Assembly (NCBI GenBank): GCA_040755975.1
Contig: JBFLZY010000006.1
Location: forward strand, 10,078 to 74,077
Length of the DNA: 64,000 nt
Direction: 5' to 3'
Source: Bacillota bacterium
Lineage (GTDB): Bacteria > Bacillota > Desulfotomaculia > Desulfotomaculales > Nap2-2B
Positions 3,680 to 38,079 of this stretch are shown piece by piece. The position numbers and the translations under genes are program-made. The first letter of the stretch is position 1; the number at the start of each line of letters is the position of its first letter. The notes beneath the pieces are model-generated. The model was not told the DNA's origin, did not search any database, and was given only the letters and a program-made list of their open reading frames with translations.

Positions 3680-3809
3680 GTATATACTTCCTTTTGGGGA
3701 ATCACGAGTTCTTTTGCCGGCATAAAGCATCTTCACCTTCTGCTTGCTTGCTGATATTTTATCACGTTCAGGCGCAACAAGGCAATAATCGGCAAAAACA
3801 AAAGCCTAT

Positions 3810-18452: not shown

Positions 18453-19157
18453 TTACATTGCTTCGGCCAGCTGTTCTCCCTGCCTGCCTTCCAAAACGGC
18501 ATCGGCCATTTTGCTGGTCAGCAATCTTACGGCCCGGATGGCGTCGTCATTGCCCGGGATGACGTAGTCTATCTCTTCCGGATCGCAATTTGTATCCACA
18601 ATGGCAACGATCGGGATGCCCAATTTTCTCGCCTCGGCAACGGCAATCCGCTCTTTGCGCGGGTCAATTACAAAAAGAGCGTCCGGCAGCTTTTTCATCC
18701 CTTTAATTCCGCCGACGGACTTTTCCAGTTTCTCTTTTTCCCGCGTAAGTCCGGCTATTTCTTTTTTCGGCAAAACCGCGAGCGTGCCCTCGGCCGCCAT
18801 TTTTTCCAGCTCGAGAAGGCGCTCAATCCGGTGGCGGATGGTCTGAAAGTTGGTGAGCATGCCGCCCAGCCAGCGCTGGTTGACGTAAAACATGCCGCAC
18901 CTTTCGGCCTCTTCCCTAACCGCCTCTTGGGCCTGCTTTTTGGTCCCCACAAAAAGAACGGTCCCGCCAGCGGCGCTCAACTCCTTGACGAAATTATATG
19001 CTTCTTCGATTTTCCTGACCGTTTTCTGGAGGTCGATGATATAAATTCCGTTGCGGTCGGTAAAAATATAAGGAGCCATTTTCGGGTTCCACCGCCTGGT
19101 CTGGTGCCCGAAATGAACCCCCGCCTCCAAAAGCTGCTTCATTGAGATAATCGCCAC
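18453..19157 (-). CDS. rpsB: 30S ribosomal protein S2
   Basis: [24 protein letters not shown]...; GTG start 19157 after GGAAGGAGGTG. Confidence 0.95.
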
Positions 19158-19432
19158 TTTTACACCTCCTTCCGCCCTGGTTTTTCCCTCCGCCGCCTTC
19201 ATCCTTTTGCGCAAACCCGCCTGGGCAACCGGCAAAAATCAGGCCGGCGTGCGTATTTTTTACCGGATGTATTCTAACACAAACTTGCCGGGCGCGCAAG
19301 GGAGGATCGCAAAAGAGCCGTCCTTTACCGCCGGTTGATTTCATGTTAAAACGAGGGGGAAGAAGTGAAGAGGTGGTGGCAGGGATGCCGCCGGGATTTT
19401 CCCTGGATTTATAACGATATTTTCTAACCCTT

Positions 19433-19567
19433 TCAACTAAAACACCTGATTACCAGAACCCCCGTTAAGAACAGGATGGTGCTCAAGCCCAGGGTATCGA
19501 CCACCAGGGAAACAGTCTCTACCCACTCAGGGGTTTTCTCCTCGGGATAATAACGTTTGTTCGCCAT
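19433..19567 (-). CDS. Small (44-aa) single-TM membrane peptide, last gene of the first TauE module
   Basis: ATG 19567 preceded by GAGGTG; MANKRYYPEEKTPEWVETVSLVVDTLGLSTILFLTGVLVIRCFS; below the ORF-track size cutoff. Confidence 0.35.
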   Translation of the reverse strand: MANKRYYPEEKTPEWVETVSLVVDTLGLSTILFLTGVLVIRCFS

Positions 19568-19732
19568 TCCCAACACCTCGCTTTCAATTAAAAGAAGAGG
19601 GAGAGGGGGAGAGGGGGTCTTCTTCGGGGAATGACGCCCTCTCCACAGGGGAAGGGTCGTTTATTGACCAGCGCCTCTCCAAAAAGCATGAAAAGGGAGC
19701 AGGTTAAAAGCTTCGTAACTTTGGCAAACGCC

Positions 19733-19811
19733 CAAAACAAAAGGCCGGTTGCCTTGAACCAAGGCTAACCGGCCTATCGTTGTTCGATTTGGCCTAAACT
19801 CTTTTTACTTT
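19733..19811 (-). ncRNA. Candidate short transcript / attenuator (copy 1): conserved hairpin overlapping an intrinsic terminator
   Basis: Minus-strand RNA reads GGCCAAAUCGAACAACGAUAGGCC followed by AGGCCGGUU..AACCGGCCU UUUGUUUU; 25 of 26 nt of the core are identical to the copy at 28816-28841. Confidence 0.5.
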
Positions 19812-19817
19812 GTTAAA

Positions 19818-19846
19818 ATTATAACAAAGCAATCGGGTGCTGTCAA
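19818..19846 (-). promoter_or_regulatory. Consensus sigma-70-type promoter (TTGACA-17-TATAAT) driving the short transcript
   Basis: Minus strand has TTGACA (19846-19841), a 17-nt spacer and TATAAT (19823-19818). Confidence 0.7.
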
Positions 19847-19903
19847 GAAATTTATTAGCAAAAGTTTTGGCAAATGTTCAGAAAAACCGTAAAAGATCCT
19901 TCT

Positions 19904-20617
19904 TCAGGCTTCTGCTTTTTCCGCGGGCTTGCTGGCCGTGATCCCCAGCCCCTCAAAGATCAACATGATGGCAAAGCCGTACCAGATGGTGTAAACAACG
20001 TAAAAAACGAGGGAACCAACCGAAATTCCCGCCACTTCCCGGAACCGGGCCGGCGGAATGCCGTCATAATTGTACGCCGGCTCCAAAGCCTTCTTGCTTA
20101 CGTTTTCAACAAACACCGCCTCCGCCGGTTTGTTTTCCTGCAGGTAGTGACCTTTTAACTGCTTGAAGGCCGCCCACCAGTAATAAACGGCTTCCTTGCC
20201 GGAAAAACCGTATTGATTTGGGGCGGGCGTTTCCCCGCTCTGAAACAAGGCATCGGCGTCAGCCAGCGCGCGCCGGGCCACCAGGCCCAGGTCGCCCGTG
20301 ACCCGCAGGCTTTCTCCGCTGACCGCCGCTCCCGCGCCCGCGGCAAGGAAGAGAGTTTTCATTTTTTCCAGCTCTTCGGCACTTTTCACCTGGAAAGTAA
20401 CTTCCATTTTAGTTCCGGTAAATCGATCTGCTTTCCCGGCCAGGTCCGGAATAAAGTAGGACGATCCCTTAGCCAAAGAGTTAAAGATGCCGTCGACCAG
20501 ATGCAACCCGGTCGCACCTTGAAAAACCGGGCTGAGGATTACGGCCAGGGTCGCTCCGAAGCAAATCAGCAGCACCAGGCCGGCGATAAATGCCCTCCGG
20601 TTAATGATTACAGGCAT
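19904..20617 (-). CDS. Membrane-anchored hypothetical protein (N- and C-terminal TM segments), partner of the TauE-like permease
   Basis: 237-aa ORF 20 nt downstream of the 441-aa permease gene; no family recognised. Confidence 0.55.
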   Translation of the reverse strand: MPVIINRRAFIAGLVLLICFGATLAVILSPVFQGATGLHLVDGIFNSLAKGSSYFIPDLAGKADRFTGTKMEVTFQVKSAEELEKMKTLFLAAGAGAAVSGESLRVTGDLGLVARRALADADALFQSGETPAPNQYGFSGKEAVYYWWAAFKQLKGHYLQENKPAEAVFVENVSKKALEPAYNYDGIPPARFREVAGISVGSLVFYVVYTIWYGFAIMLIFEGLGITASKPAEKAEA

Positions 20618-20637
20618 CTGTACGCACCCCCTTCATC

Positions 20638-21963
20638 CTAACGAGAAGACTCCAAGGCCTGTTCCGTCCGCCCGGACGTTGCCGGCACACCGGCCAGAGC
20701 AGCGTGTTCCGCCCTGATTTTTCCCACGCTGCGCAGGAAAGAGGCCAGGACCCAGAAAGCAAACCCGCTGACCAAAGCAAAAAAGATGACCGTTCCGATG
20801 GTGCTCAGCAGTTTTCCGGCGGCCGGGGCCAGGCTAAGGTAACCGGCGCTGGAAAGCTTTTCCGGCAGAGCACAGGCCCGGTTGACAAAGCCGGCAAAAA
20901 TGGCCAGAGCGTAAAAACCGCGGATGACCGCCCCCTTGACCACCTTCGTCACCATGGCGCCGATTTGCACGCCGACCAGGGAGCCCAGCAAGAGGCCCAT
21001 GGTCAGGGAGTAAAAGACGAACCCGCTGATGGCGTATTGAATGGACGCATACCCGGCCGTAAAGATGATCTGCAAAATATCGGTGCCGACGGTCGTAAAC
21101 GTGGATACGCCAAGGCCGTAGACAAACATCGGGAAGGTCAGAAAACCTCCGCCGACACCCATAATGGCGGCGATAAAACCGACTATGAATCCGCACCCGA
21201 TAACCGGATAAACCGGCAACTGCCGGCCGCCCGGGACAATGTCCTGGTCGAATTTAACGTAGGGGGGAATCTTCAAGGACTGTAACGTCCGGGCAATCCT
21301 GGTCGTGGTTTGCACCTGCGCTTTTTGGGAAGCCTCGGCCCGGCGCAGGCTAAGATAATCGTAAAGGGCATAAGCCCCCAGAATGCCGAGCATGAAAACA
21401 TAGACTCCACTGATAAAGGCGTCGCTGAGCGCGGGGCTCTTTTCGTAAATGGACTTGTTCAAGCCCGTTCCCAACGTCACCCCAAGGGTTGAACCAACGA
21501 CAAACCAGACCGCCAGCCAGACGTTCACGTTGCCCAGCTTCCGGTGCAGGGCGGTGCCCATGATCGCTTTGGCAAAAATATGAAACTGGTCGGTCCCCAC
21601 CGTCATAATTCCCCTTACCCCGATACTCATCAACGCCGGGGTAATCACGAAACCCCCGCCGGCGCCGATACACCCGGTAATTAAACCCGCAACCAACCCC
21701 ACAAAAAGCGAACCCAAAAACATTTCCGTGGTAATAAAGGACGGCGCGTAAGCTTTGCCGCCGCCAATCAATTCGGTCGCCAAAGCTATTTCTACGCCCA
21801 TAAAAATGATTACCGGCAAAAGGGCGGCCAGCAATATTTTCCAGCGCCTGGCGAGGATAAACCTGCTGTTTTCAATTTCCCAGCGGGCGTAGGCGCTTTG
21901 CAGGTTCAGCAGCGTATTGTTGAACTGCCTTCCTTTGTGGCAAAGTTTAGACCACAAATGCAT
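20638..21963 (-). CDS. TauE/SafE (DUF81) family anion permease, long form
   Basis: 441 aa; duplicated GxGGG-type motifs (CIGAGGGFVITPAL and IMGVGGGFLTFPMF) with TVGTD motifs typical of TauE/SafE; ATG 21963 after GGGGGAG. Confidence 0.8.
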   Translation of the reverse strand: MHLWSKLCHKGRQFNNTLLNLQSAYARWEIENSRFILARRWKILLAALLPVIIFMGVEIALATELIGGGKAYAPSFITTEMFLGSLFVGLVAGLITGCIGAGGGFVITPALMSIGVRGIMTVGTDQFHIFAKAIMGTALHRKLGNVNVWLAVWFVVGSTLGVTLGTGLNKSIYEKSPALSDAFISGVYVFMLGILGAYALYDYLSLRRAEASQKAQVQTTTRIARTLQSLKIPPYVKFDQDIVPGGRQLPVYPVIGCGFIVGFIAAIMGVGGGFLTFPMFVYGLGVSTFTTVGTDILQIIFTAGYASIQYAISGFVFYSLTMGLLLGSLVGVQIGAMVTKVVKGAVIRGFYALAIFAGFVNRACALPEKLSSAGYLSLAPAAGKLLSTIGTVIFFALVSGFAFWVLASFLRSVGKIRAEHAALAGVPATSGRTEQALESSR

Positions 21964-22512
21964 CCACTTCTCCCCCTTTCAAAATCGAAAAGCCTGATGA
22001 AGCCGCCTGGTGATCTTTTCCATATTTCTTTTTCTAAATCAACCTGCTCCCTTTGCATGTTTTTTGAAGAAACCGGTCTCCAACAACCCTTTTTCTGCCA
22101 AAAATGTTCTTGATCTATCCGGATGGTCAACACCTCCTTCTTTTTTGCTAAATCTCCTGCCCATGTGAACTTATTCACTTCACTTGCCGGATAATACTCC
22201 CCGCACACAATCCGGCACCGGGGTCCTGCTTGAAATTTAACAGCCAATTTCCTCCGGACCGGAAACCCTCCCTCATCTGCGTAGCAGAGTAATCGCGACA
22301 ACTCCTTAATTGCCGATTGTGATATAATTAACTTTCTTTATGAGAAATTTATGTTTTTGTCACTACACCTGTCAAACCTGAATATTTCGATCTATTGGCT
22401 TACCAACTTAAATATTATTAACATTCCTGTTCTTGTTCTATTTACTCTTCATCAGCCAGTTTATCTCGTTTTTTTGAGTTATCGTGAAATCAAAAAATTC
22501 ACGGCGAAGGGA

Positions 22513-22563
22513 TTGACAGGAAGAGACTCTTCACGTATAATTGTGATTAGTTTAACAATCACA
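22513..22563 (+). promoter_or_regulatory. Consensus promoter (TTGACA-17-TATAAT) immediately followed by a 22-bp palindromic operator
   Basis: TTGACA 22513-22518, TATAAT 22536-22541, then TGTGATTAGTTTAACAATCACA at 22542-22563. Confidence 0.65.
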
Positions 22564-22880
22564 TTCCAAACAACGTAAAACCCTTAATTGCCTGAAAAGA
22601 AAGGGGGAAAATGAGCGGAGGGTTGACCAGCGGCAATGCAAAGGGGGAAGGTTGAAAACGCGATGAGATGTTGACGATATTGTTATAAAAAGGTTCGTGA
22701 AAACAATCACCGGGAGAAGAAAATGTGAAAAGTATTGTGATTAATGGCACATATTAAACTGCCGGCAACGCTCTTTAGCCCCTTGATCGTCCCAAAATAA
22801 AAAAAGGAAAGGAGTGAACACCGGCCGCCGGGGGCTGTCCGGCCGCTTAGTCGAGGGCCGGTCAAAAAGGCCGGAGGAAA

Positions 22881-23201
22881 ATGAAAACGGTAAGAGAATT
22901 CGTGGTGCCGGTAAACGATTACGACCCCAACCTTGAAAAAGAAAAGCGTTACGTTCCGGGCAGGGAGCGCGTTTTTCGCCCCGGGTTCTATCCTTACGTT
23001 CAGGAAGTCGTCCGTTTCAACCTGCTTTCCGTAAATGCCGGCGATCCCGTGGAGAAAGCCCTGCAGATCATGTTCCGGGAAAAGGTAAAGACTTTACCGG
23101 TGCTGGAAAAGGGCAAAATCGTCGGCGTGGTCAGGTCCCGTGATTTAATTGCCCTGTACGGGGAACTGTTCGAAGATAAGCGGATGAGCTTTTCGTCTTG
23201 A
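22881..23201 (+). CDS. Small CBS-domain protein
   Basis: 106 aa; KVKTLPVLEKGKIVGVVRSRDLI is a CBS-type beta-alpha-beta segment; RBS GGAGGAAA. Confidence 0.55.
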   Translation: MKTVREFVVPVNDYDPNLEKEKRYVPGRERVFRPGFYPYVQEVVRFNLLSVNAGDPVEKALQIMFREKVKTLPVLEKGKIVGVVRSRDLIALYGELFEDKRMSFSS

Positions 23202-23235
23202 TTATCAGTTGGTGCCTTGAATCCTCTCCCGTGAA

Positions 23236-23283
23236 ACGCTCATTTTAAGAACAAGCAGGTTCCCTAAAATGAGCGTCTTTTTA
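23236..23283 (+). terminator. Intrinsic terminator after the CBS gene
   Basis: 12-bp stem ACGCTCATTTTA / TAAAATGAGCGT followed by CTTTTTA. Confidence 0.75.
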
Positions 23284-23352
23284 TTTCATCGTTTTTACTG
23301 ATTAAGCAGCGGCGATAGGTAAACCACCTTTATTTACAAAGGGGTTGAAGTT

Positions 23353-24885
23353 ATGCCTCCTTTTACCCAAATGCCGGGTTTTAAACGCCAATTTTTACTA
23401 ATTGTGTTTATCCTTTTAATCGTCCCGGTGCTGGTGATGCTTTACGACGTCTATTTCGCCTCCAAAACCGACGACATTCTGGTCGTCAACCTCGAAAAAA
23501 AGCTTACCGGCATTGTCAATCAGACGGGCGAAAAAATCACCGCCCGGCTCGCACTGGAACCGGCCGGAAAACAGGCCGCTTCCCTGGAAGAGGCATTCAA
23601 TCAGGCGGCCGCTCCCCTGGCGGAAGCCAACCCGGGCGTCCGGCTGTGTATCTACCTGATCGAAAAAGACAAGATCGTCATCCACGGCTATCTTCACGAA
23701 TTCGGCAAGCGCCTGCCGGAAGAAAAATACGAACGGGAACGGCGCATTTACAACGAAGCGTTAAAAGGAATTTCCGCCGTGATGAAAAGCGGGGAACATA
23801 TCACCAGACTGGGCCGGACATGGGATGACCAGTTCTTGGAATACCTGGTCCCGGTGCGCGTTAACGGCCAGATCACCGCGGTGCTGTGGGCGGAGGAAAT
23901 GATGCACCCGCTTTTTGCCCGCAGCACGAAGCTGCGCCTGGTAATCCGCTACGTCACCCTCGTGGTCTTCAGCTTTGGCGTCATTGCTTCCCTGGTCGCC
24001 ATTGCCTCTTTGGTCCGGCAGGTAAGGGTAATCAAAAACGGCCTCTTGCAACTGGAGAACAATTTTTACTACCGGCTCCCGGCGCTGCCGGGCGAGATGG
24101 GCCAGATTACCGGGGCGATCAACACCTTGGCCGCCGGTCTTGCCGAAAGAGAACAAATGATTGAACAATTGCGGCGTTCGGAAAACCTGATCGCCCTCGG
24201 CAAACTGGTCACCAACATCGCCCACGAGCTACGCAACCCGGTTAGTATTATCCAGGCCGTCAGCGAAGTGCTGGCGTCCCGGTTGAAGAGTTCTCCGGAA
24301 TTAAAAGGGTATGCGGAATACGTAACAAAAATTCAGGAGCAAATCGAAAGACACAACCGGCTGGTGGGAGAACTGCTGGACTTTGGGCGACCAGACCCCG
24401 GCCTCATCGCGCCCCTGAGCTTAAATGAACTGATTTCCGTAATTCTAGGGGACTGCGCTTTGTTGCTCCAGCAAAAAAAGATCGCCCTCGAATTCGCTCC
24501 CAGCGCGGAACCGCTGCTCATAAAGGGCAACCAGGAAAAACTCAAGCAGGTACTGATCAACCTCCTGCTTAACGCCGTCCAGGCCATGCCCAGGGGGGGA
24601 AACCTGATCGTCCGGACGGAAGCAGTCAACCACACGGCCCGGGTGATGATCCGCGACACCGGGGTAGGCATCTCCAAAGAAGACCTGCCGCAAATTTTCA
24701 CCCCTTTCTATACCAAAAAAGCCGGCGGGGGCGGTCTGGGCCTGGCGATCAGCCGGCGCATCGTCCAGATTCACGGGGGGTCGATCAGCGCGGAAAGCGA
24801 ACCCGGGGCGGGTACCACTTTCATCCTCAGCTTTCCGCGTCTTCAAACGGACGAAGAAAACATAGCGTTATCCCCAGATACTTAG
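23353..24885 (+). CDS. Sensor histidine kinase (2 TM, extracytoplasmic sensor domain, HAMP, HisKA, HATPase_c), paralog 1
   Basis: H-box NIAHELRNPVS, N-box LLLNAVQAMP, G-boxes RDTGVGI and GGGGLGLAISRRIV; same architecture as the ORF at 35104-36669. Confidence 0.9.
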   Translation: MPPFTQMPGFKRQFLLIVFILLIVPVLVMLYDVYFASKTDDILVVNLEKKLTGIVNQTGEKITARLALEPAGKQAASLEEAFNQAAAPLAEANPGVRLCIYLIEKDKIVIHGYLHEFGKRLPEEKYERERRIYNEALKGISAVMKSGEHITRLGRTWDDQFLEYLVPVRVNGQITAVLWAEEMMHPLFARSTKLRLVIRYVTLVVFSFGVIASLVAIASLVRQVRVIKNGLLQLENNFYYRLPALPGEMGQITGAINTLAAGLAEREQMIEQLRRSENLIALGKLVTNIAHELRNPVSIIQAVSEVLASRLKSSPELKGYAEYVTKIQEQIERHNRLVGELLDFGRPDPGLIAPLSLNELISVILGDCALLLQQKKIALEFAPSAEPLLIKGNQEKLKQVLINLLLNAVQAMPRGGNLIVRTEAVNHTARVMIRDTGVGISKEDLPQIFTPFYTKKAGGGGLGLAISRRIVQIHGGSISAESEPGAGTTFILSFPRLQTDEENIALSPDT

Positions 24886-24916
24886 CCTCATCACATTTCA
24901 AATTTGATCGGCAGTA

Positions 24917-24968
24917 TTGACATCATTATGAAATTAATGTTACACTAAAATTGTGATAACTATCACAA
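24917..24968 (+). promoter_or_regulatory. Promoter (TTGACA-18-TACACT) followed by the perfect CRP/FNR-type palindrome TTGTGATAACTATCACAA
   Basis: TTGACA 24917-24922, TACACT 24941-24946, palindrome 24951-24968, 22 nt upstream of the receiver gene start. Confidence 0.65.
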
Positions 24969-24990
24969 ATCTCTTTAGGAGGGGATAATT

Positions 24991-25371
24991 GTGGCCAGGG
25001 TACTTGTTATTGACGATGAAGAGGGGATGTGCTGGGCGCTGGAAAAAGCCCTGGAGGAAGAAGGCCACCGGGTTTTTACCGCCACCTGCGGGCTGGCCGG
25101 TCTGGCTGTTTTCAAGGCGCAAGAAATCGACCTGGTCCTTTGCGACATCAAGATGCCCGACATCAGCGGGCTGGAAGTTTTGGAGCAAATCCGCAAGAAA
25201 AAACCGGACGTTCCGGTGGTGATCATGACCGGGTACAGCACTTTGTCCGTTGCTCTGGAAGCAATTAAAAAAGGGGCCGTCAGCTACCTCACCAAACCTT
25301 TTCACATCGGTCAGCTAAAGGAATTGATGCAGAAAATGATTAATCAGCAGCCTTGCCGATCAGTCCATTAA
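24991..25371 (+). CDS. Stand-alone response-regulator receiver domain (NtrC-type receiver without AAA+ or HTH domains)
   Basis: VLVIDDE...DLVLCDIKMPDISGLEVL...YLTKPF; aligns with residues 1-120 of the NtrC-type protein at 36644 but stops after 126 aa. Confidence 0.9.
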   Translation: MARVLVIDDEEGMCWALEKALEEEGHRVFTATCGLAGLAVFKAQEIDLVLCDIKMPDISGLEVLEQIRKKKPDVPVVIMTGYSTLSVALEAIKKGAVSYLTKPFHIGQLKELMQKMINQQPCRSVH

Positions 25372-25682
25372 ATTTGCCGTCGAAAAAAACACCAGCCGCC
25401 CGTTTTGATCGGGAAAAGCTTACGGAAAGCGTCCGGGAGAAAATCGCCATTGGTAAATCTATTCGTGAGTTCCACGAAAGAGAACAGCTGGTCAAGGCAA
25501 TCGAGTTGCTCAAAAAATTTCTTTACCGGGATGAAAAAGGTGTAGTTTTTTGCCGGGCAAATTTCTTTGCGGAACCCCCGCATACCGAAGACCGCCTGGA
25601 CGAAGCTATCCATACTTTGTTGCGAGGGAAAGTCAACATCCTGCGGTGCTGGGAAAAAAAGCCCACCCTACCGGCGCAATAG
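25353..25682 (+). CDS. Hypothetical protein (weakly supported ORF)
   Basis: 109-aa ORF with only a TTG start and no clear RBS; overlaps the 3' end of the receiver gene. Confidence 0.3.
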   Translation: MPISPLNLPSKKTPAARFDREKLTESVREKIAIGKSIREFHEREQLVKAIELLKKFLYRDEKGVVFCRANFFAEPPHTEDRLDEAIHTLLRGKVNILRCWEKKPTLPAQ

Positions 25683-25758
25683 CTCTTCCTTGCCCGGGGA
25701 AAAATCGGGAGCATTTAAACCTGTTACGCAACCGCAGTTAAATTCAACTGGAAAGTTT

Positions 25759-25914
25759 TCAGGGAATAATCGGGCCAAACAGGTAGGCTAAATAAACAAC
25801 CCACAGAGATGAAACAAGAAAGATCCCAATAACATGCACAACATCATTTAAAACGTCGCCGCTGTCGATTTCTTCTTCGTAACCCCTCCAGTTCCGATCC
25901 CACATTCTCATCAT
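25759..25914 (-). CDS. Small (51-aa) membrane peptide candidate
   Basis: ATG 25914 preceded by GAGGGGTAAGGGG; MMRMWDRNWRGYEEEIDSGDVLNDVVHVIGIFLVSSLWVVYLAYLFGPIIP. Confidence 0.3.
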   Translation of the reverse strand: MMRMWDRNWRGYEEEIDSGDVLNDVVHVIGIFLVSSLWVVYLAYLFGPIIP

Positions 25915-26209
25915 CCCCTTACCCCTCGCTAACATAATATTAGCAAAAAAAACAAATAAGGTAAATAGTTTTTTAAATAGTATATTATTTCACATATTTT
26001 TAGCCACCCTTGACTTTATTTTAGGAGCTTGAGATAATATAAGTCAATTAATATTTTTATTTCCTTACTACTCTTTCTTTACTGAATAAAGGACAGGGAC
26101 GTGTTATGGAAAAAATAGTGATATCGTTCACATACCAACTATGAAACAACCCCAAAGAAAAACTTAACATTTGCGCACCCATCACCAAAAAACTCAAGGA
26201 GAGGTGGCC

Positions 26210-26515
26210 ATGCGTTTACCTTTTTTGAAAATTATCACTCCCCCCTGCCCCGCCTGTGGGTCTAAAAATACCACCACCGGGCGGTTGATCAGGCTCGCGG
26301 CCGGTTTCGGCGTTGGTCTGGGCGGATCAATCTTGTGTTTTCTCCTGGCTTTTCTTTACCCCCCCGGCCTGATCTTAATCCCCATCGCCCTGGGTTGCGG
26401 CTTTTTGATCTGCGTCATCCCTCCGCTGGGCAAGTATTGCTGCCTCGACTGCGACGCTTACTGGAATCCCGATAACCCGCAGCTATACTGGAAACCAAAA
26501 CCACCCGGGATTTAG
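26210..26515 (+). CDS. Membrane protein with terminal Cys pairs (zinc-ribbon-like)
   Basis: ATG 26210 after AAGGAGAGGTGG; CPACG near the N-terminus and CCLDCD near the C-terminus flank two TM segments. Confidence 0.5.
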   Translation: MRLPFLKIITPPCPACGSKNTTTGRLIRLAAGFGVGLGGSILCFLLAFLYPPGLILIPIALGCGFLICVIPPLGKYCCLDCDAYWNPDNPQLYWKPKPPGI

Positions 26516-26695
26516 CGCTTCAAAATACCCGCAGGGAACCATCGGGCGAGCCACGAAAAAATGGCACAAAAAAATCCCGGGACATGAAAATACCTTGCCG
26601 GGGGAATATTTTGCCGGCCAACAGCCAGAGCCCCGGGATTGATTCCCGGGGCTCTGGCTGAGACGAGGTCGTCAGTTTTATGACTGACCCCGATG

Positions 26696-27886
26696 TTAAG
26701 CTTTGGCCCTGGCCGCCAGCTCTTTTTCCCGCTTTTCCCGGGCAATCCCTGCGAAAAGCTGGACGACAATGTAGATACATATTCCGGAAGCAGCGGCCAG
26801 CATCAGGTAACCGCCAACCATCGTCCAGAGATAATTTTTCATAAAGGCAACGTACCACTCCGGCCGGTTGGCCACTTCCACCATGTAGTGGTACATGGCA
26901 TCCTTCTTGTAGATCAGCGCGGAAATTTCCCCGGCGGAAAATCCTTCTTGTTTCAGCAGCGCTTCGATTCCTTTCTTGTAAACAGGTTCGTACTGGGAAG
27001 CAATCTGTTTTAAAATTACGGACGCACAGCACAGGAAGGTCGCCACGGCAAAAACCAGCCGGATCGTGATTCCGTAAACGTACTTGGTACAAATAGTGCC
27101 GAATTGGGCACCTACCGCTGCACCAAGGAGCATGATCGCCGCGCCAAGCACTTCCACGCCGCCTTTCAAACTATAGGTGAAGCACCCGTAAGCACCCGAG
27201 AACATCACCTCGAACAGGTCGGTGCCGACGGCTATTTTGGTGGGTACACCCATTAAGTAAATCAGGGCAGGCACCCGGATGATGCCGCCGCCGACCCCCA
27301 GAATGCCGGCGCAAAAACCGGTCACCACGCCCACGAAGAGGATGGCCCAGAGGGAAACTTTCATCCTGGCTACCGGACAGTAAAACGTGGGCCAGATGTT
27401 GAGCGTGTCCTGGATCCAGCGGGACCAGGCGGTGCCGACCACGTCCGCCACTTCTTTGCCGGTTTTCTTCTCCTGCCTTCTTACGCGCAGATATTCCGAT
27501 AACATAAACGTGCCGATAGTCAGGAGCAGGATCATGTACAGGTAGCGCACCACTGTCCCGGCCTGGCCGATTTTGGTCAGATACCGCAGGATTTGGGCGC
27601 CGGCCTCAATTCCCGAAAAGGTTCCGATCAACATGACCAAAGCAATGATGACGCTGACGTGACCAAATTTCCAGTGCCTGAAGGTGGCGATGATGGATTT
27701 GCCAACCAGGTGGGTCATGTCGGTACCTACGGCGTAAATCATCGGAAACCCGAAGATATTCAGCGTGGGGGTAACCAGCCACGCCCCGCCGATGCCGAAA
27801 AAGCCGCCCACCACCCCGACGGTGAAGCCGATTAGCAAAAGGGGCCACCAGGCCATTTCAACTCCACTTACCGGCATGTGGATCAT
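26696..27886 (-). CDS. TauE/SafE (DUF81) family anion permease with C-terminal extension
   Basis: 396 aa; FFGIGGAWLVTPTL and ILGVGGGIIRVPAL repeats, AVGTD motifs; same central insertion as the 441-aa paralog. Confidence 0.8.
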   Translation of the reverse strand: MIHMPVSGVEMAWWPLLLIGFTVGVVGGFFGIGGAWLVTPTLNIFGFPMIYAVGTDMTHLVGKSIIATFRHWKFGHVSVIIALVMLIGTFSGIEAGAQILRYLTKIGQAGTVVRYLYMILLLTIGTFMLSEYLRVRRQEKKTGKEVADVVGTAWSRWIQDTLNIWPTFYCPVARMKVSLWAILFVGVVTGFCAGILGVGGGIIRVPALIYLMGVPTKIAVGTDLFEVMFSGAYGCFTYSLKGGVEVLGAAIMLLGAAVGAQFGTICTKYVYGITIRLVFAVATFLCCASVILKQIASQYEPVYKKGIEALLKQEGFSAGEISALIYKKDAMYHYMVEVANRPEWYVAFMKNYLWTMVGGYLMLAAASGICIYIVVQLFAGIAREKREKELAARAKA

Positions 27887-27918
27887 GAATCTTCACCTCC
27901 ATTTTTTTAAAAAAATGA

Positions 27919-28122
27919 TTATTGCACTTTAATCACTTTATCTTCTTCTTCGTACTCTTTCTTGTACTTGCCCAGGTCAATCCGGAGGGCTTTAAAGATC
28001 AGATCAGCCAAAATGCCCAGGGCGCCCCCCAGGCAAACCATGGTCAGCACAGTCATCCCCGCGTAGGACAACGGGGAGGCCTTTTCTAAAGCGGCAAGCC
28101 ATTCAAAGTAACCCATGGTCAT
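27919..28122 (-). CDS. Small membrane protein (67 aa), upstream partner of the permease
   Basis: One TM segment (MTVLTMVCLGGALGILADLIF) and an acidic/basic tail; RBS GAGGAGGA. Confidence 0.5.
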   Translation of the reverse strand: MTMGYFEWLAALEKASPLSYAGMTVLTMVCLGGALGILADLIFKALRIDLGKYKKEYEEEDKVIKVQ

Positions 28123-28182
28123 TCCTCCTCTCGTTCTTTAGTTTTCTTTTTCCGGCGCTTCCCGGAACTGTAAATCCCCTGG

Positions 28183-28290
28183 CTAACCTGCCTTGCCGGC
28201 AACCTGCCCCGTGACGAGGAAATAAATCCAGGTTACAAAAGAACCGCAGCAGAACAAGATGATAAAAATTTGGATCAGTCTTTTGCCCAT
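28183..28290 (-). CDS. Small (35-aa) membrane peptide
   Basis: ATG 28290 lies 8 nt after GGAAAGGAGGT; MGKRLIQIFIILFCCGSFVTWIYFLVTGQVAGKAG; replaces the out-of-frame 65-aa track ORF. Confidence 0.45.
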   Translation of the reverse strand: MGKRLIQIFIILFCCGSFVTWIYFLVTGQVAGKAG

Positions 28291-28407
28291 TACGCGACAC
28301 CTCCTTTCCTTCTCTGTTTTTAACTGCCCGGAGGATGTCTTGCTCCGGGGGTTAAGTCAGGTTATAAGATGGTGACATAATTCACATATCCCCTGAAAAT
28401 AAAACTG

Positions 28408-28620
28408 CTAACGAATAACTTGCTTTGGTTTGTTTTTTCCAGGATAAAGGGTAACCGGCTGTTCTTCCAGCTTCACCGTCTTGATGGCTTCGTAAATCAA
28501 CACCGGCTGTCCGTTTTCCACGCGCACTCTGACTTCACCCCAACCTAATTCCCGCATGAAAAGAATGAGCTGTTTTTCCCTGTTCGTAAGGTTCTGGACG
28601 GCTCCTTTTTCATCGGCCAT
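28408..28620 (-). CDS. YezD-family (DUF2292) small protein
   Basis: 70 aa; LTNREKQLILFMRELGWGEVRVRVENGQPVLIYEAIKTVKL matches the YezD family pattern (my recollection). Confidence 0.65.
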   Translation of the reverse strand: MADEKGAVQNLTNREKQLILFMRELGWGEVRVRVENGQPVLIYEAIKTVKLEEQPVTLYPGKNKPKQVIR

Positions 28621-28642
28621 TACCTGCTCCCCTCCCCGATAA

Positions 28643-28699
28643 CGTGATTGTTTTCACTATCACATTTTAATTCTATTTTTTACTCGCCCAGCCTGTCAA
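28643..28699 (-). promoter_or_regulatory. Promoter (TTGACA-18-TAGAAT) followed by the 22-bp operator TGTGATAGTGAAAACAATCACG
   Basis: Minus strand has -35 at 28699-28694, -10 at 28675-28670 and the operator at 28664-28643; half-site AACAATCAC is shared with 22555-22563 and 22702-22710. Confidence 0.6.
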
Positions 28700-28775
28700 G
28701 AAAAACCGACCGATTTTTTGACCGATCTAAATTACCGGGCAACGTCAGCTTAAACTGTCCGAAGGGGCGGGGATG

Positions 28776-28889
28776 AAAAAAGGCCGGAAGGCTCTAACCG
28801 GGGCTAGAGACTGCCGGCCTATCGTTGTTCGATTCGGCCCTGCCTGTGAAGTTTGATCTAAAAATAACAAATTCCTGCTGCGCTGTCAA
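28776..28889 (-). ncRNA. Copy 2 of the promoter + conserved hairpin + terminator unit
   Basis: TTGACA at 28889-28884 with a weak -10 (TATTTT), GGCCGAAUCGAACAACGAUAGGCC, then the terminator AGGCCGG...CCGGCCU UUUUU. Confidence 0.45.
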
Positions 28890-28932
28890 CCCCTTTTTTG
28901 CATCTGAAAATTACGAAAATAGGCCTTCCGGA

Positions 28933-29193
28933 TTAACCTGTCCTTTTCTTTAAAAATTCAAGGATTATACCGGCCGTTTCCGGGTCAAAATCACTCTGAT
29001 AAAACCTCAGGAAGAGCGCCTGGCGCAACTCGGCCGGGGTGAGCCGGGGATTTTCCGCCCGGAGAGAAGCCAGCGCCAGGCGGCGGGCGGTATCAAACAT
29101 CGAGCAGCCCATCTTAAGACGTTTTTCGCCGGGCCGTCTCATGATCATCGCCCGGAACCGCCTGGCTGCCTCGGGGTTAGTATCGCCGGTCAT
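28933..29193 (-). CDS. Small helical hypothetical protein, partner of the nucleotidyltransferase remnant
   Basis: 86-aa ORF; its ATG overlaps the stop of the upstream fragment (ATGA). Confidence 0.5.
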   Translation of the reverse strand: MTGDTNPEAARRFRAMIMRRPGEKRLKMGCSMFDTARRLALASLRAENPRLTPAELRQALFLRFYQSDFDPETAGIILEFLKKRTG

Positions 29194-29391
29194 TTGGCTG
29201 CCTCCCTGTAAAGATCTTCAACCGCCAGCTCTTTTTTTATATCTACCGTCCGCAGTTCGACCACGATATCGATATCCCTGGTCATGCGGGGGACGTCATA
29301 AAAGTAGAATTGACCCGGTTGGCATGTACGGGATTTGCGCCTTGTTCAGCCGCCCGGTGACTATCTTTAATACTTCCAATTCATCGCTCAA
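29190..29391 (-). pseudogene. Frameshifted, truncated nucleotidyltransferase-like gene remnant
   Basis: Frame A reads LSDELEVLKIVTGRLNKAQIPYMPTGSILLL-stop; frame A+1 continues FYDVPRMTRDIDIVVELRTVDIKKELAVEDLYREAAK; together this resembles the N-terminal part of a MNT-type nucleotidyltransferase. Confidence 0.4.
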
Positions 29392-29666
29392 TTCAACTTC
29401 CCCTTTCCCCCAATTATAACAAAACTGATCAATTATGAACTCTTGAATTTATAAAAAGCACCCTGTTTTCTGGTGATGCCGGACCGGGACCGGAACCAAA
29501 CCAGGCCGGACCGAATAGCTTGAATATTTTTTATTGTGGAACTTAATATGTGACATATTGCACAAGTGTGTCTTAGGTGTTATAATGCCAGTTAAGTAAG
29601 TGAGAGACAAAAATAGTGACCAGACATGTGACAGATATCACAATTAACTAGAACAACAAATTCAAG

Positions 29667-31238
29667 GTGGAAAAGAACAAAAAACTGCGAAAATGTAATG
29701 ACAAGGAGGGGGGTTGGCCGGTGTTTTTCCGAAAAATCACCACCCGCAGCAACGACAAGGAATACACGTACGTCAAGCTCATTGAAAACTACCGAAAGGG
29801 AAATAAGATCAAGCAAAGGGTCATCGCCAACCTGGGAAACATCGAAGAACTGGACCCGGACCGGGTGCGCAACCTGATCGCCAGCCTGGCGAAAGTTTGC
29901 GGCGTGGAACCTCCCGGCAAACCAAAATTGAAAATAAAAAGAGTCTTGCGTTACGGCGACGCCCTGCTGATCCATAAAATCTGGGAACGGCTGGGCCTCA
30001 CCGGCGCGGCGGGCGCCTTCCCCGGCGCGACGCCGGACCTGGCCCTGGCGATAGAACTGCTGGTCATTGCCGAACTCCTCCCCCTCCCCGCGGGAGCGTT
30101 TCAGGAATGGCGCCGCCACCTCTATTTGCCCGCTCCGGAACAGGCGAATCCCCCGCCCCGGGAAGAAGTCCTGAACTATCTGGCCGAAAACGGGCGGCGC
30201 CTCCAGGAACGCATCTTTCACCGGTTGCAGGAATGGGGAAAAGTAACCTCGCCCATCTACCTTTTCGCCGTGAAGAGCCTGGTGGAAAACATCCCCCCGC
30301 AGCCGGCCCACTTTCTCAACCGGCGCGGCGAACGCCGTTTCTTCGACCTGGATTTATTTACGACGCCCGCGGGAATCCCGGCCGGGTACGCCGCAACGGC
30401 TCGAAACACTGCAGACGGGCAAAACCTGACCAAAAGGATGGCCCAGGCCGGCGAACGGTTTAAAAATTACCGGGTTATCCTGGTCGGCAATTTTCCCGCC
30501 CTTCCCGAAGAAAATCCGCCTGGTCTTGCCAGGTACGCCCGGGAATACATCACCGGTCTTTCCCTTTCCTCCCCCAAAGCCGGGGAGACCAGCCGGAAAG
30601 TCTTGCCGGCAGACCTTTTCCCCGCAGATCTCATCCCGGCAGCTCTTTTGGAGAACTTCCACCGGCTTGCCGACGACCTCTGGTACCGGGAAATCAAATC
30701 GGAACAAACGCGCTACCTGTTATGTTCGAATCCTTTTCAAAATCGCAATTTCATTATTCAAACAAATACCGAAGATCTCCCCGCCTCCGAAATTATCCGG
30801 ATCTATAACGATTTCGCCGCTGTTCAAGCCCGCTACCGGGTCATCGGATGCCCCGCCCGGCCGGATTGCACCGCCATGAGCCTGCCGGGGCGGATCTTTA
30901 TTTCCTGGCTGGCCCACCTGGTCGAGAGGCTCCTCGACTATATTTTCCAGGAACAGGGAATTAATATAAATGCGCTTGCCGCCCTGCAAACTTTGGAGCC
31001 GGTTAAGATAGTCATCAACGAAATGGGGGGTGAGATCGGCAGTTCGGTAATGGCGATGGATAAGGCGCAGAAAAAAATTCTATCCGCCCTGGAAGCGGGA
31101 GTGGCGCCTTCAGAAGCACCTGACGGGTTTCGTCCGACTTCCTGTCCCGCCGGGCAACACCGGCGACACCTTAGAAAACAGAGGTTGGGGATTAGACTCC
31201 CAGGCCATTTTCGCAGCACAAACAGAAAACGAAAATGA
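29667..31238 (+). CDS. IS1634/IS4-family transposase-like protein, probably degenerate
   Basis: N-terminus FFRKITTRSNDKEYTYVKLIENYRKGNKIKQRVIANLG is typical of IS1634 transposases. The expected second catalytic Asp region reads ILVGNFPALPEEN. The last ~15 codons run into the hairpin repeat. Confidence 0.55.
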   Translation: MEKNKKLRKCNDKEGGWPVFFRKITTRSNDKEYTYVKLIENYRKGNKIKQRVIANLGNIEELDPDRVRNLIASLAKVCGVEPPGKPKLKIKRVLRYGDALLIHKIWERLGLTGAAGAFPGATPDLALAIELLVIAELLPLPAGAFQEWRRHLYLPAPEQANPPPREEVLNYLAENGRRLQERIFHRLQEWGKVTSPIYLFAVKSLVENIPPQPAHFLNRRGERRFFDLDLFTTPAGIPAGYAATARNTADGQNLTKRMAQAGERFKNYRVILVGNFPALPEENPPGLARYAREYITGLSLSSPKAGETSRKVLPADLFPADLIPAALLENFHRLADDLWYREIKSEQTRYLLCSNPFQNRNFIIQTNTEDLPASEIIRIYNDFAAVQARYRVIGCPARPDCTAMSLPGRIFISWLAHLVERLLDYIFQEQGININALAALQTLEPVKIVINEMGGEIGSSVMAMDKAQKKILSALEAGVAPSEAPDGFRPTSCPAGQHRRHLRKQRLGIRLPGHFRSTNRKRK

Positions 31239-31535
31239 CCGGCCCGCCGTTCGATTTGCCGGGAGCGACATGTGCGTAGGGCCGGGTAACGAGACACGGC
31301 GCAGGTGAGGCAAGCGAACCGGCAGCGCGAAACGCGCAAATAACCCAATGATAGAAAACTGACAGCAATCGCCGGAAAACCGAGTAAGAAAAGAAAACTA
31401 ATGTACCGCGCGCATTTTGCAGCGCTGCCTGGTTCGCTCCGAACCAGGCCGATGTCTCGTCGGCCCGAAGCATCGGAGCGACGGCAAACGAACGGCGGGC
31501 GAAAGCCTGTTTTCAGGAGAGAATAACGAGAGTAC
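31200..31535 (+). repeat. Copy B of the ~250-nt rod-like hairpin element, upstream of a TauE-like gene
   Basis: Closing stem 31244-31254 pairs with 31489-31499; extended imperfect helix; two compensatory substitutions relative to copy A. Confidence 0.65.
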
Positions 31536-31628
31536 CGGTCGCCGCGGGCGGCTCCCGGGAAAACCCCGGCGGACCGGACGGGCAGTTCCGTCAAGATTAT
31601 TTTTGAAACCTGAAAGGGGTGCAGGCAA

Positions 31629-32621
31629 ATGATCGATCCCCTGACCACTGCGCCGGCAATCTTTTTTATCGGTCTTTACGCGGGTATTTTAAGGGTGTGT
31701 TACGGAACCGCCGCCCAGTTGCTGGCCGTTCCCCTGCTGAACATCTTCGGCCTTCCGACCGTTTTTGCCGCCGGCACCGCCATCGCCGGGAGCTTTTGCC
31801 AGACCGCCGCAACCCTCGTCCAGAAAGGCTCCCTTTCTTACGCGCACCGGCGGCTGGGGTTGGCCCTGGGTATCTTCGGTACCATCGGTATGTTTCTTGG
31901 TCATGCGCTGCTCGCCGGAATATCCGCTGTCAACCAGAATATTTTTACCGCCACCTGGACTGTTCTTCTTTTTGCTGCGGGAGCGGCAACCCTGGTGTAT
32001 TCCCTGGCCAAAGAAAAAAAATGCGGCCCCGGTCAAAATCCCCCTCCGTCCAATTGGCCGTTTTTATTCCGGCCCGGCCCGGGCAACACCCGGTTTATTG
32101 AATTTTTGTCTCTCCCGGCGGTTTTCCTGGTCGGGCTGGGAATCGGCTTCGCCACAGGGTTCTGGGGCCTGGGGGCGGGCCTGCCGGGGATCATTCTGCT
32201 GACCGGGGTTTTGCACGCACCCCCGCAGGTTGCCGCGGCCACCGACCTGGTTGCCTCCTCGATCATCAGTGCGGCGGCCCTGCTGAGCTACCTTCTCACC
32301 GGCCATTTGCATGCCTGGGCCCTGCTCCCCTTTGTCTGCGGACTGTTTGCCGGAAACTGGGCCGGCCATCTGGCGCCCCCGGAAATTAAGGCCGGAATGT
32401 TTCGTCCCGCCTTCGCCGGCGTATTGTTCCTGGGTGCGGCGGCGGCGGCCTTAAAAGTGGCCGGCCACGCCAAAATGGCGGGGCTCTTCTTGATGAGCGG
32501 CATGATTTTGCTCTGTGCGGCCCTCTTAGCCGGCCACCTGCTCATTAACTTGCTGCTGCAGCGCTCCGGCGAAAAAGAAACCGGCGGTAAGCAATCAGAG
32601 CATTCGCCAATTCACCCGTAA
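31629..32621 (+). CDS. TauE/SafE (DUF81) family anion permease
   Basis: 330-aa polytopic protein with AAGTA / AAATD pseudo-repeat motifs; RBS AAAGGGGTG. Confidence 0.75.
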   Translation: MIDPLTTAPAIFFIGLYAGILRVCYGTAAQLLAVPLLNIFGLPTVFAAGTAIAGSFCQTAATLVQKGSLSYAHRRLGLALGIFGTIGMFLGHALLAGISAVNQNIFTATWTVLLFAAGAATLVYSLAKEKKCGPGQNPPPSNWPFLFRPGPGNTRFIEFLSLPAVFLVGLGIGFATGFWGLGAGLPGIILLTGVLHAPPQVAAATDLVASSIISAAALLSYLLTGHLHAWALLPFVCGLFAGNWAGHLAPPEIKAGMFRPAFAGVLFLGAAAAALKVAGHAKMAGLFLMSGMILLCAALLAGHLLINLLLQRSGEKETGGKQSEHSPIHP

Positions 32622-32641
32622 AAGCAACCTGTTTATTTCGC

Positions 32642-33289
32642 TCAAACGACCCCCAGTCTGTTTAAAGCTTTTTTGGTCACCAGGATGAAGCTGGCCAGCT
32701 TTTTGGACGTCAGTTCCGTTTCCCAGCGCTCCGCCAAACGAAAAGGCAAAAATACTTTGAATCTATACTTGCCGGTAGCTTCTACTTTCGGCAGTTCCCG
32801 CTCCAAGGCCTCCCCTAATTCAAATTCTATTTCTTTTTTCTGGCCCAGGAGCGGCAAAAAAACCTGTTTTTTCCGGCCGTCCATAACCAGGTCCAAAACC
32901 AGCAGTTCGCGGCCCTGGTAGGTTCCTTTACGCGGCCTGGTTTTGCCGATGCGGTAATATACGTTTTTATTTTCCAAAACTTTAATGCACCGCCAGGACC
33001 CTTTCAGGCCCAGCCACTGGTCGGAGGAAGGATAGAACATTTTAATCCCCCAGCCGCGCAGTATTTCCTGGGTGCGGATAAGCACTTCATCCAGAAACTC
33101 GTCGAAATCGCCTGACCCGGTCGCTGCAGAATCTTCTTCGCTTTTTACTTTTTCTTCCTGAAGCCAGCGCTCGAACCAGTTGAGCACCTTTTTATAACTG
33201 CTTTGCTGGTACTCCTGGAGAAATGCTTCCTTCTGTCTTGTAAAATGCTTAACAAATTCTTGATTAGTCATTCCCTTCTCACTCCCCAC
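32642..33289 (-). CDS. Hypothetical soluble protein, last gene of the TauE-DUF1634 operon
   Basis: 215-aa ORF 21 nt downstream of the DUF1634 gene; no family recognised; the start may be ATG 33271. Confidence 0.5.
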   Translation of the reverse strand: MGSEKGMTNQEFVKHFTRQKEAFLQEYQQSSYKKVLNWFERWLQEEKVKSEEDSAATGSGDFDEFLDEVLIRTQEILRGWGIKMFYPSSDQWLGLKGSWRCIKVLENKNVYYRIGKTRPRKGTYQGRELLVLDLVMDGRKKQVFLPLLGQKKEIEFELGEALERELPKVEATGKYRFKVFLPFRLAERWETELTSKKLASFILVTKKALNRLGVV

Positions 33290-33310
33290 ACCGCAAGGAG
33301 GCCGCCTTGC

Positions 33311-33727
33311 CTAATGACCAACCCGAAGAACCCCGCTGGCCGCGAGCAGCAGAATAAGTATTTCCAGCCCGGCAATTGCTGCGTAGGCCATATCCTTGCT
33401 CTTGATATAAAAGGGGATTAAAACCAGGTAGCCTGCTATAGTCAGGAAAGCCAGAAAAGCAATGCCGATAAAATTTAGAAAATCGCCGTACATGAGCATC
33501 CCCACCCATCCCCAGCCGACGGGCAGGTTCAACTGTTCGTTAAAATCATGTACGTTCATCCCCCAGTAATTGGGAAGCATTGCGGAAGGTACATAGGGAG
33601 AAATTATCCCGCTGGCGTACAACAAAAACAGGATCCCGAGAATCAGGATTCCTCCCCAGGCCCCGTAAAACAGAATATTGGCGTATCTGATTTGTTCCGG
33701 CGCAATTTGCAGGTTCTGTTTCTCCAT
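33311..33727 (-). CDS. DUF1634-like small membrane protein
   Basis: 138 aa with 3-4 TM segments, immediately downstream of a DUF81 permease; this is the usual DUF81-DUF1634 pairing. Confidence 0.6.
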   Translation of the reverse strand: MEKQNLQIAPEQIRYANILFYGAWGGILILGILFLLYASGIISPYVPSAMLPNYWGMNVHDFNEQLNLPVGWGWVGMLMYGDFLNFIGIAFLAFLTIAGYLVLIPFYIKSKDMAYAAIAGLEILILLLAASGVLRVGH

Positions 33728-33734
33728 AGCATTT

Positions 33735-34682: not shown

Positions 34683-34903
34683 TCCTTCCCCTCCCCCGAA
34701 AAATTACGTATGGCAAAACTTTTTCCATCTGCATTTCTTCCTGAAAAATAAAGCGTTCGGCAAGCAATTCCGCCCCTGTCAAACACCCCCTCTCGCTGGT
34801 AAAAGTAAAAATAATTCTTCTTCCTCAACTTACCCTTTATCAAAACATACCCTTTGTGCTATAATAAACATGCGTGGAAAATAGAATGCACTTGCTCAAT
34901 AAA

Positions 34904-34918
34904 GCACAAACCGTGCCA
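34904..34918 (-). promoter_or_regulatory. Candidate sigma-54 (-24/-12) promoter for the TauE-DUF1634 operon
   Basis: Minus strand reads TGGCACGGTTTGTGC, with GG-N10-GC spacing; it lies about 220 nt upstream of ATG 34682 and 113-170 nt from inverted repeats. Confidence 0.55.
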
Positions 34919-35103
34919 GCGGACTAAATACAGGCATCTCAGAAGGGACAAAAGACTTAACCCGGCTGAGCCTTGCCGGCGATGTCTAAAAACAAACAGT
35001 TAATTACCGAGGGATAAAGTTAACGGGACTTGTGAACGTGATAACATTATTTTTCCGCTGTCTGTTATCAGACAAGGGTTGTTCACAATTCAACAGGAGT
35101 TAA

Positions 35104-37993: not shown

Positions 37994-38079
37994 AAATTTT
38001 TTCGAAAAAAGGAGGATTTGCCCACAACTCTTCAGAATATTTTCATTTGAAAAGAGGTTAAACTTTTACAAAAAGACTG

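Follow-up and report, generated by a model that had tools for sequence, protein, structure and literature searches.

Introduction

Rex is a repressor that senses NADH/NAD+, and its published operator, TTGTGAANNNNTTCACAA or TTGTGAA-N4-TTCACAA, has the same core as the palindromes described here (PMC6391272, PMC2883068); an operator variant built on TTGTTAA (TTGTTAA-N4-TTAACAA) is found in Clostridiaceae (PMC8457756), and autoregulation by Rex is common, as is its control of kinases and of other regulators (PMC6391272, PMC2883068, PMC8457756). In Desulfovibrio vulgaris, sat is an experimentally known target of Rex, which represses it (PMC7531388). The sites of the CRP/FNR family (E. coli CRP, Bacillus Fnr and HcpR of sulfate reducers) have the identical 5-6-5 core.

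The window analysed here is a stretch of 64,000 nucleotides from a Desulfotomaculia-like bacterium, in which TGTGA..TCACA palindromes recur at a transporter locus (Table 1). As in the Rex regulons of Gram-positives, Thermus/Thermotoga and Desulfovibrio, the sites have the core GTGA-N6-TCAC with TAACA half-sites tolerated, overlap the promoter or start, and include the rex promoter, nuo and sat among their putative targets, in a genome that encodes a canonical Rex; histidine kinase and regulator genes are likewise putative targets, as in Caldicellulosiruptor (PMC6391272). They differ from known Rex operators in the base after TGTGA, which is T, A or C here versus a dominant A, and from known Rex regulons in that 13 sites fall in one 13-kb transporter locus, that several are composites with a third half-site (22 bp), and that the content is new: four to five TauE/TSUP modules, and yezD-like, CBS, Usp, Na/Pi-type carrier and IS1634-like genes. 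From CRP/FNR sites they differ in their repressor positions, in that both Crp/Fnr paralogs lie beside other palindromes, and in that none lies at hcp. The Rex-sat link of D. vulgaris Hildenborough (Christensen 2015, via PMC7531388) is similar in that a redox repressor gates the entry of oxidised sulfur into dissimilatory reduction, with sat here having a conserved site and the genome having dsrAB; it is different in that the organism here is Gram-positive and Desulfotomaculia-like, with the sat site 400-530 bp upstream, and in that control here appears to reach putative sulfur-oxyanion permeases and sensor systems. Judged from sequence, these operators most likely define a Rex regulon, unusual in both content and density, in an uncultured sulfite/sulfate reducer that is Desulfotomaculia-like.

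Operator motif and its distribution

In the window, the pattern TGTGA-N6-TCACA with at most one mismatch gave 9 matches versus 0.59 expected (0 of 100 shuffles reached 9), all 9 confined to 22164-35046, and TGTGAT-N10-ATCACA gave 2 matches versus 0.03 expected. The whole genome (G000; 3.24 Mb, 220 contigs, 92% complete) held 30 matches to the first pattern at the same tolerance, 10 of them on the window's contig, and only two perfect ones, at 24952 and 29627, both in the window. A preliminary description of this DNA had proposed that a genome scan without intergenic or promoter-proximal enrichment would speak against an operator family; the matches were enriched in intergenic DNA, so that objection does not hold. 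Under a crude ORF rule by which 18.7% of positions count as intergenic, 17 of the 30 matches were intergenic (p = 4e-6), as were 10 of the 21 outside the window locus (p = 0.002), and the use of the plain pattern with at most one mismatch kept this test free of spacer bias. With a position weight matrix (PWM) built from 43 distinct sites of the window's genome and five sister genomes, 23 of the 29 top genome matches were intergenic.

Pattern and PWM together gave 13 window sites with the core TGTGA-N6-TCACA, in a 13-kb transporter locus. All sequences quoted in the preliminary description were found where it had placed them, and its three strong promoters (P1, P2 and P5) scored 12/12, 10/12 and 11/12 in a consensus scan; sites beyond its list are those at 22164, 22318, 22736 and 26117, and a weak one at 25979.

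Table 1. Predicted promoters, operators and putative regulated genes in the window
Feature	Coordinates	Strand	Sequence or content	Position or associated genes	Basis or conservation
Promoter P0	22346..22375	-	TTGACA-18-TAAATT	TauE module 1 (gene 20638-21963)	Consensus scan
Operator O0a	22318..22333		TGTGATATAATTAACT	12 nt past P0 -10 box	PWM 21.6 (C6:32395); block kept in G002, G005, G001
Operator O0b	22164..22179		TGTGAACTTATTCACT	Module 1 leader	Kept in G001, G002, G004, G005; flanks differ
Promoter P1	22513..22541	+	TTGACA-17-TATAAT	Operon of small ORF, CBS protein, histidine kinase
Operator O1	22542..22563		TGTGATTAGTTTAACAATCACA, composite, 22 bp	Begins at base directly after P1 -10 box
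Operator O1b	22696..22711		CGTGAAAACAATCACC	P1 leader	CGTGAAAACTATCACG at same place in G005
Operator O1c	22736..22751		TGTGATTAATGGCACA	40 bp centre-to-centre from O1b	Conserved in G005
Promoter P2	24917..24946	+	TTGACA-18-TACACT, with TG extension	Receiver-only response regulator gene
Operator O2	24952..24967		TGTGATAACTATCACA, perfect	5 nt past P2 -10 box	Genome's top PWM score; conserved in G001, G002, G003, G005 (alignment A3)
Operator O3	26117..26132		AGTGATATCGTTCACA	Upstream of 114-aa membrane/zinc-ribbon ORF 26171-26515	Conserved in G002; equivalent sites in G001 and G025
Operator O4	28371..28386		GGTGACATAATTCACA	Directly past yezD-like gene, within TauE module 2	Conserved in G002
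Promoter P5	28670..28699	-	TTGACA-18-TAGAAT	Operon of yezD-like gene, small membrane protein, TauE (26696-27886)
Operator O5	28643..28664		TGTGATAGTGAAAACAATCACG (gene strand), composite; core 16-mer AGTGAAAACAATCACG	5 nt past P5 -10 box
Operator O6a	29549..29564		TGTGACATATTGCACA	Right half is -35 box of promoter 29559-29586
Operator O6b	29627..29642		TGTGACAGATATCACA, perfect	5' leader of IS1634-like ORF	Conserved in G002, G003, G005
Weak site	35031..35046		TGTGAACGTGATAACA	Inside nested inverted repeats upstream of sigma-54 promoter 34903-34918 (-)
Putative regulated genes	22881..25371	+	CBS protein 22881-23201, histidine kinase 23353-24885, receiver-only regulator 24991-25371		Pfam
Putative regulated operon	26696..28620	-	yezD-like 70-aa gene, 67-aa membrane protein, TauE/TSUP permease
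Putative regulated gene	29667..31238	+	Single-copy IS1634-like ORF, 523 aa	Followed by TauE gene 31629-32621

Conservation in related genomes

In five genomes of the same genus (G001-G005) the sites were kept at the same promoters, with half-sites retained while spacers and flanks drift; the P5 block GATAGTGAAAACAATCAC was almost invariant in G000, G001, G002 and G005 (alignment A1). The layout at O6a precedes homologous genes in G001, G002, G003, G005, G025, G022, a Peptococcaceae MAG and the cultured relative Desulfoscipio gibsoniae, and in other families of the order (G025, G022, G027) sites lie before yezD, kinase, 114-aa ORF and TauE genes. The proposal of one shared operator family is supported, and the repeated TGTGA..TCACA palindromes are real, conserved, predicted repressor-binding sites.

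Promoter-promoter similarity inside the window ends at the palindrome of about 24 nt. Duplication of promoters as the source of the repeats was rejected on this ground, with the exception of a paralog of P1 on another contig (C167). This bears on a reading in which no DNA-binding protein is involved and the palindromes act as RNA (5'-terminal hairpins, stabilising or attenuating) or are leftovers of duplicated promoters. The P1, P2 and P5 sites would form the first 16-22 nt of the mRNA, and P1 does have its paralogous copy; yet the half-site letters are common to all sites without covariation, the sites at -35 (29549 and C22:21555) are not transcribed, the stems would be 5 bp only, promoter similarity stops at the palindrome, and an Rfam search of 19000-38500 at E up to 1 gave no match. 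This reading is considered extremely improbable.

Between G000 and G005, protein identity was 98-99% for Rex, nuoA, sat, Na/Pi and housekeeping genes and 56-96% for the genes of the TauE locus (window 19000-35200), where dS was 0.3-2; given the low identity there against 98-99% elsewhere, the locus stands out within the genus as a place where divergence or allele exchange is concentrated. Window 31186-31518 holds a repeat of roughly 330 bp that has many copies, at 82-96% identity, in the genome and its relatives; in G002 and G005, copies are inserted at the equivalent of window position 29232.

Placement at predicted promoters

With promoters predicted by consensus alone, sites began 0 nt (P1), 5 nt (P2 and P5) or 12 nt (P0) past the -10 box, or lay over a -35 box, in agreement with the repressor-type placement suggested in the preliminary description. 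The site at 29549 ends 16 nt ahead of its -10 box, which puts its centre near -36.5. Sites at 22164, 22696, 22736 and 29627 are in leaders, and that at 28371 is between genes. The repressor geometry was repeated at the Na/Pi promoter, at the fifth TauE gene (on C1) and, as seen in G002 and G004, at the Usp promoter.

The small ORF that follows P1 (window 22612-22656; C167:183-311; L019 ~6180-6320, minus strand) is 42-45 aa long in G005 and in its C167 counterpart but has only 14 codons in the window copy, and two operators lie at or just past its end.

The weaker site that had been listed at 35031 is present in sequence, with the counterpart TGTGAACGTTATTACA in G001, G002, G004 and G005, but its membership of the family is uncertain, because it is weak and is embedded in nested inverted repeats that lie upstream of a sigma-54 promoter. 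That promoter, TGGCACGGTTTGTGC (window 34903-35090 region, minus strand), serves a TauE-DUF1634 operon; the repeats, TTGTGAAC..GTTCACAA and TGATAACA..TGTTATCA, are 110-170 nt upstream of it. The NtrC-type activator encoded next to them probably binds these repeats, and a Rex-type half-site could lie partly within them. Sigma-54 promoters beside the sites were rejected as a general feature, with a single good match (34903-34918) that is unrelated to most sites.

The 22-bp form

Two spacing classes, of 16 and 22 bp, had been distinguished in the preliminary description; the 22-bp form is better read as a 16-bp site with an added half-site. Its four cases in the genome (22542, 28643, C167:104 and C22:777, the last upstream of sat) align as TGTGAT-N5-nnACn-ATCACA. 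At 28643 the conserved core is the 16-mer AGTGAAAACAATCACG (alignment A1), and the counterpart of O1 in G002 and G005 is a plain 16-bp TGTGATTA(C/G)AATCACA (alignment A2), with the paralogous copy of O1 at C167:104; because of the conserved 16-mer at 28643 and the plain 16-mer at 22542 in G002 and G005, the 22-bp form makes no separate class. As read from the alignments, it is a composite of TGTGA-N6-xxACx directly followed by an extra TCACA half-site, with no second dimer spacing.

Genes under the sites

Pfam assigned four genes of the window to the TauE/SafE (TSUP) permeases and two to the histidine kinases, and it recognised one gene each for a CBS protein, a receiver-only regulator and a sigma-54 activator, along with a small yezD-like gene; NCBIfam identified an IS1634-like ORF. 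Outside the window, the motif was found at or before a fifth TauE gene (C1:101454), a DUF4912 gene, a universal stress protein (Usp) gene with two sites on C36, a Na/Pi-cotransporter/PhoU gene (C6:3094) and the C167 paralog of the module of P1, small ORF and CBS gene. A search for a local regulator with Pfam and NCBIfam on all larger ORFs of 19-38 kb returned no HTH protein except the sigma-54 activator, and ORFs of 109, 114, 86, 131 and 215 aa in that interval had no family match.

A leader motif, AATCGAACAACGATAGGCCGG, followed by a GC hairpin, is conserved before yezD/TauE modules in several families (G000, G018, G019 and G030; window 28786-28840, minus strand; L062 ~3990-4110; L063 ~3690-3730 and ~4290-4330). 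It had no Rfam match and is a candidate cis-regulatory RNA for yezD/TauE transporters.

Candidate regulators: Crp/Fnr proteins

The cognate factor had been expected to be a CRP/FNR-family protein encoded outside the window. As no Crp/Fnr gene lies on the window's contig, such a factor must be encoded elsewhere, and that part stands; the genome has two true Crp/Fnr proteins (cNMP-binding-like domain and HTH_Crp_2; 92% completeness), neither on this contig. A dimer of one of these, P0002 (C11:48382-49050) or P0003 (C16), would then bind the sites and act here as a repressor. TGTGA-N6-TCACA is the classical CRP core, and P0002 is directly upstream of a sixth TauE gene, by which adjacency a Crp-type protein is linked to the TauE family. 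In one relative (G030), perfect sites stand upstream of hcp and of a small gene resembling sulfite reductase, a pattern reminiscent of the HcpR regulons reportedly described by Rodionov (2004/2005); Desulfovibrio HcpR regulons include sulfate-reduction genes. However, the spacer between P0002 and its TauE gene has two TGTCG-N6-(C/T)GACA palindromes and no TGTGA site, the genome's only perfect TGTAA-N6-TTACA adjoins P0003, and the recognition helices, SRQTVTS and CRVTVTK, are not the RE..R of CRP. The sites are off the activator positions -41.5 and -61.5, no site scoring at least 7 lies upstream of the genome's three Prismane-family (hcp) genes, and a site of autoregulation, looked for at both Crp genes, was absent.

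With both Crp/Fnr genes adjoining different palindromes, the Rex core matching, and rex, nuoA and sat carrying family sites, the assignment to CRP/FNR is not upheld; binding by P0002 or P0003 is judged quite unlikely, and Rex most likely fits the sites better. The two TGTCG palindromes, 46 bp apart (C11:48100-48400; L045 4018-4381), probably mark a separate small P0002 regulon. Fur, LexA, cre, ArsR and Rrf2 boxes were also considered, and none fits the 5-6-5 layout.

Candidate regulators: Rex

The palindromes are probably, though by no means certainly, the operators (ROP sites) of Rex, as suggested by motif, gene content and promoter comparison. The genome has a single, canonical rex gene (P0004, C40:166-825), whose product matches PF06971 (71.6 bits) and PF02629 (64.3 bits) and solved Rex structures (E = 1.5e-49 to PDB 5zz5, 1e-43 to 3ikt), with recognition helix and wing conserved; Bacillus subtilis Rex shares this recognition helix. 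The TAACA half-sites seen are accounted for by the existence of the TTGTTAA operator variant. Of the half-sites in the count matrix, about 55% carry the outer T/A and about 41% have A at the seventh position, and therefore the fit is to the Rex core and not to the full 18-mer.

The preliminary description had asked which regulator gene carries an autoregulatory site; a family site lies at the rex promoter and none at either Crp/Fnr gene. In 10 of the 12 rex loci compared across the order, TTGACA-17-TATAAA is followed about 10 nt downstream by TGTGAA-N5-(G/A)TA(A)CA, the loci without a call being G003, where the contig is cut, and G030, where a similar box is under the scan threshold. This layout is that of P1, P2 and P5, with a degenerate right half (PWM 14-22), and in G026 the rex-promoter site is present in a genome without the IS1634-like gene. 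A conserved GGTTATTTAATTCACA precedes nuoA in 6 of 6 genomes of the genus, with related sites in G025 and G027; nuo is reportedly an experimentally established Rex target in Streptomyces (Brekasis and Paget 2003). Upstream of sat, at 400-530 bp, lies a conserved composite, AGTGATAGCCTTCACCATCACA, which the genus shares with G025 and, in part, with G026, and the window's genome has dsrAB. Two weaker observations point the same way: in genus g2 and genome G021 no rex was found and no clustered AT-rich sites were seen, and G004 and G005 have Rex paralogs, absent from G000, whose loci are rich in such sites.

Several observations count against Rex. The strongest sites are TGTGAT or TGTGAC versus the TGTGAA preferred by the published Rex consensus; the classical targets rex and nuoA have weaker hybrid sites only, with the best sites packed in one locus; and G018 has Rex and the same modules, yet no strong sites there. 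Hit counts over the whole genomes of 31 relatives were too noisy to separate Rex from other candidates. It is unusual for the best sites of a global regulator to be concentrated in one locus, and this pattern would be equally compatible with a second, dedicated factor of overlapping specificity; such a factor is possible because the strongest sites are TGTGAT/TGTGAC and the perfect ones lie in the transporter locus. With 92% completeness, the genome may also lack the gene of another regulator.

Two further features concern sat and dsrA. More than 400 nt of leader separate the conserved operator pair from the sat start codon (C22:720-1185), with a block, …GAAGGAAGTTTCG.TTTTGTGTCGAA.AG.AC…, that is strongly conserved in the genus, G025 and G001. 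The dissimilatory sulfite reductase gene dsrA (C28:3007-5625) gave two matches, one to model positions 1-80 and one to 39-401, that lie in different frames or stretches, which may reflect a frameshift or an assembly error.

The IS1634-like gene and a dedicated factor

The IS1634-like ORF (29667-31238) is single-copy and syntenic in the genus, and its dN/dS of 0.23-0.32 denotes purifying selection, versus 0.09-0.18 for most neighbours. Homologs occur across Desulfotomaculia, including the Peptococcaceae MAG and Desulfoscipio gibsoniae (further loci at L109, L105 and L066-L069), beside TauE or Na/sulfate symporter genes; in their promoters, which have 1-3 sites each, the TTGCACA half of a TGTGA..GCACA site serves as the -35 box. 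In G027 the first 105 residues of the protein alone remain, and a large internal deletion is seen in the protein of the present genus (alignment A4). No Pfam model matched the IS1634-like family, even for full-length homologs. From these features, the ORF looks like a domesticated transposase gene.

A dedicated, unrecognised factor could read the strong TGTGAY sites, with Rex confined to the weaker, hybrid sites of rex and nuoA. The gene for this factor might lie within the locus or close to it; a candidate is the conserved N-terminal DNA-binding part of the IS1634-like protein, which would then be autoregulated. The IS1634-like gene always has 1-3 sites at its own promoter (G000-G005, G025, G022, G027, G028, the Peptococcaceae MAG and D. 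gibsoniae), it is single-copy, syntenic with TauE or Na/sulfate symporter genes and under purifying selection, the strongest site clusters fall in genomes that have it, and the strong sites favour T or C after TGTGA, unlike those at rex and nuoA. On the other hand, G026 and G030 both lack the gene, yet G026 retains family sites at rex and sat, and in G030 a comparable sub-threshold box stands before rex; G024 has the Na/Pi site and only a distant IS copy; and Pfam and NCBIfam found no other DNA-binding domain in the locus. Conservation of the N-terminal part is no sign of a new function by itself, because all homologs of the IS clade share it. To our knowledge, there is no bacterial precedent for such a transposase-derived regulator, which also weighs against this reading.

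A dedicated factor is considered unlikely. The narrower proposal, that a lineage-specific factor of IS1634 transposase origin, and not Rex, reads the strong TGTGAY-N4-RTCACA sites and the three-half-site composites, would be a long shot; if true, a domesticated transposase would be a regulator of sulfur-anion transport in Gram-positive sulfate/sulfite reducers.

Discussion

With Rex as the preferred reader of the sites, the advance lies in the content of the regulon and not in mechanism, because the regulator and the operator type are already well known. What would be new is the targets (TauE/TSUP modules, two-component genes and a seemingly domesticated IS1634-like gene).

In the proposed mechanism, a Rex dimer would block RNA polymerase by occupying GTGA-N6-TCAC, either over the -35 box or at or just past the -10 box. 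When NADH rises relative to NAD+, under excess reductant and too little electron acceptor, Rex would leave the DNA, and the TauE/TSUP modules and the genes for the CBS protein, histidine kinase and receiver would be derepressed, as would the universal stress protein, Na/Pi-cotransporter-like and IS1634-like genes, together with nuo, sat and rex. The TauE/TSUP permeases would presumably carry sulfur compounds.

Should Rex bind these sites, then in this uncultured Firmicute with dsrAB the uptake or export of sulfur compounds would be coupled to the NADH/NAD+ balance, through at least five TauE/TSUP modules, their sensor kinases, sat and complex I. The Desulfovibrio Rex-sat link would then hold in Gram-positive sulfate/sulfite reducers as well and would take in the transport step. 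A handle would also be gained on the TauE/TSUP paralogs and yezD-like genes, so far poorly understood, which would be jointly derepressed when electron acceptor is limiting.
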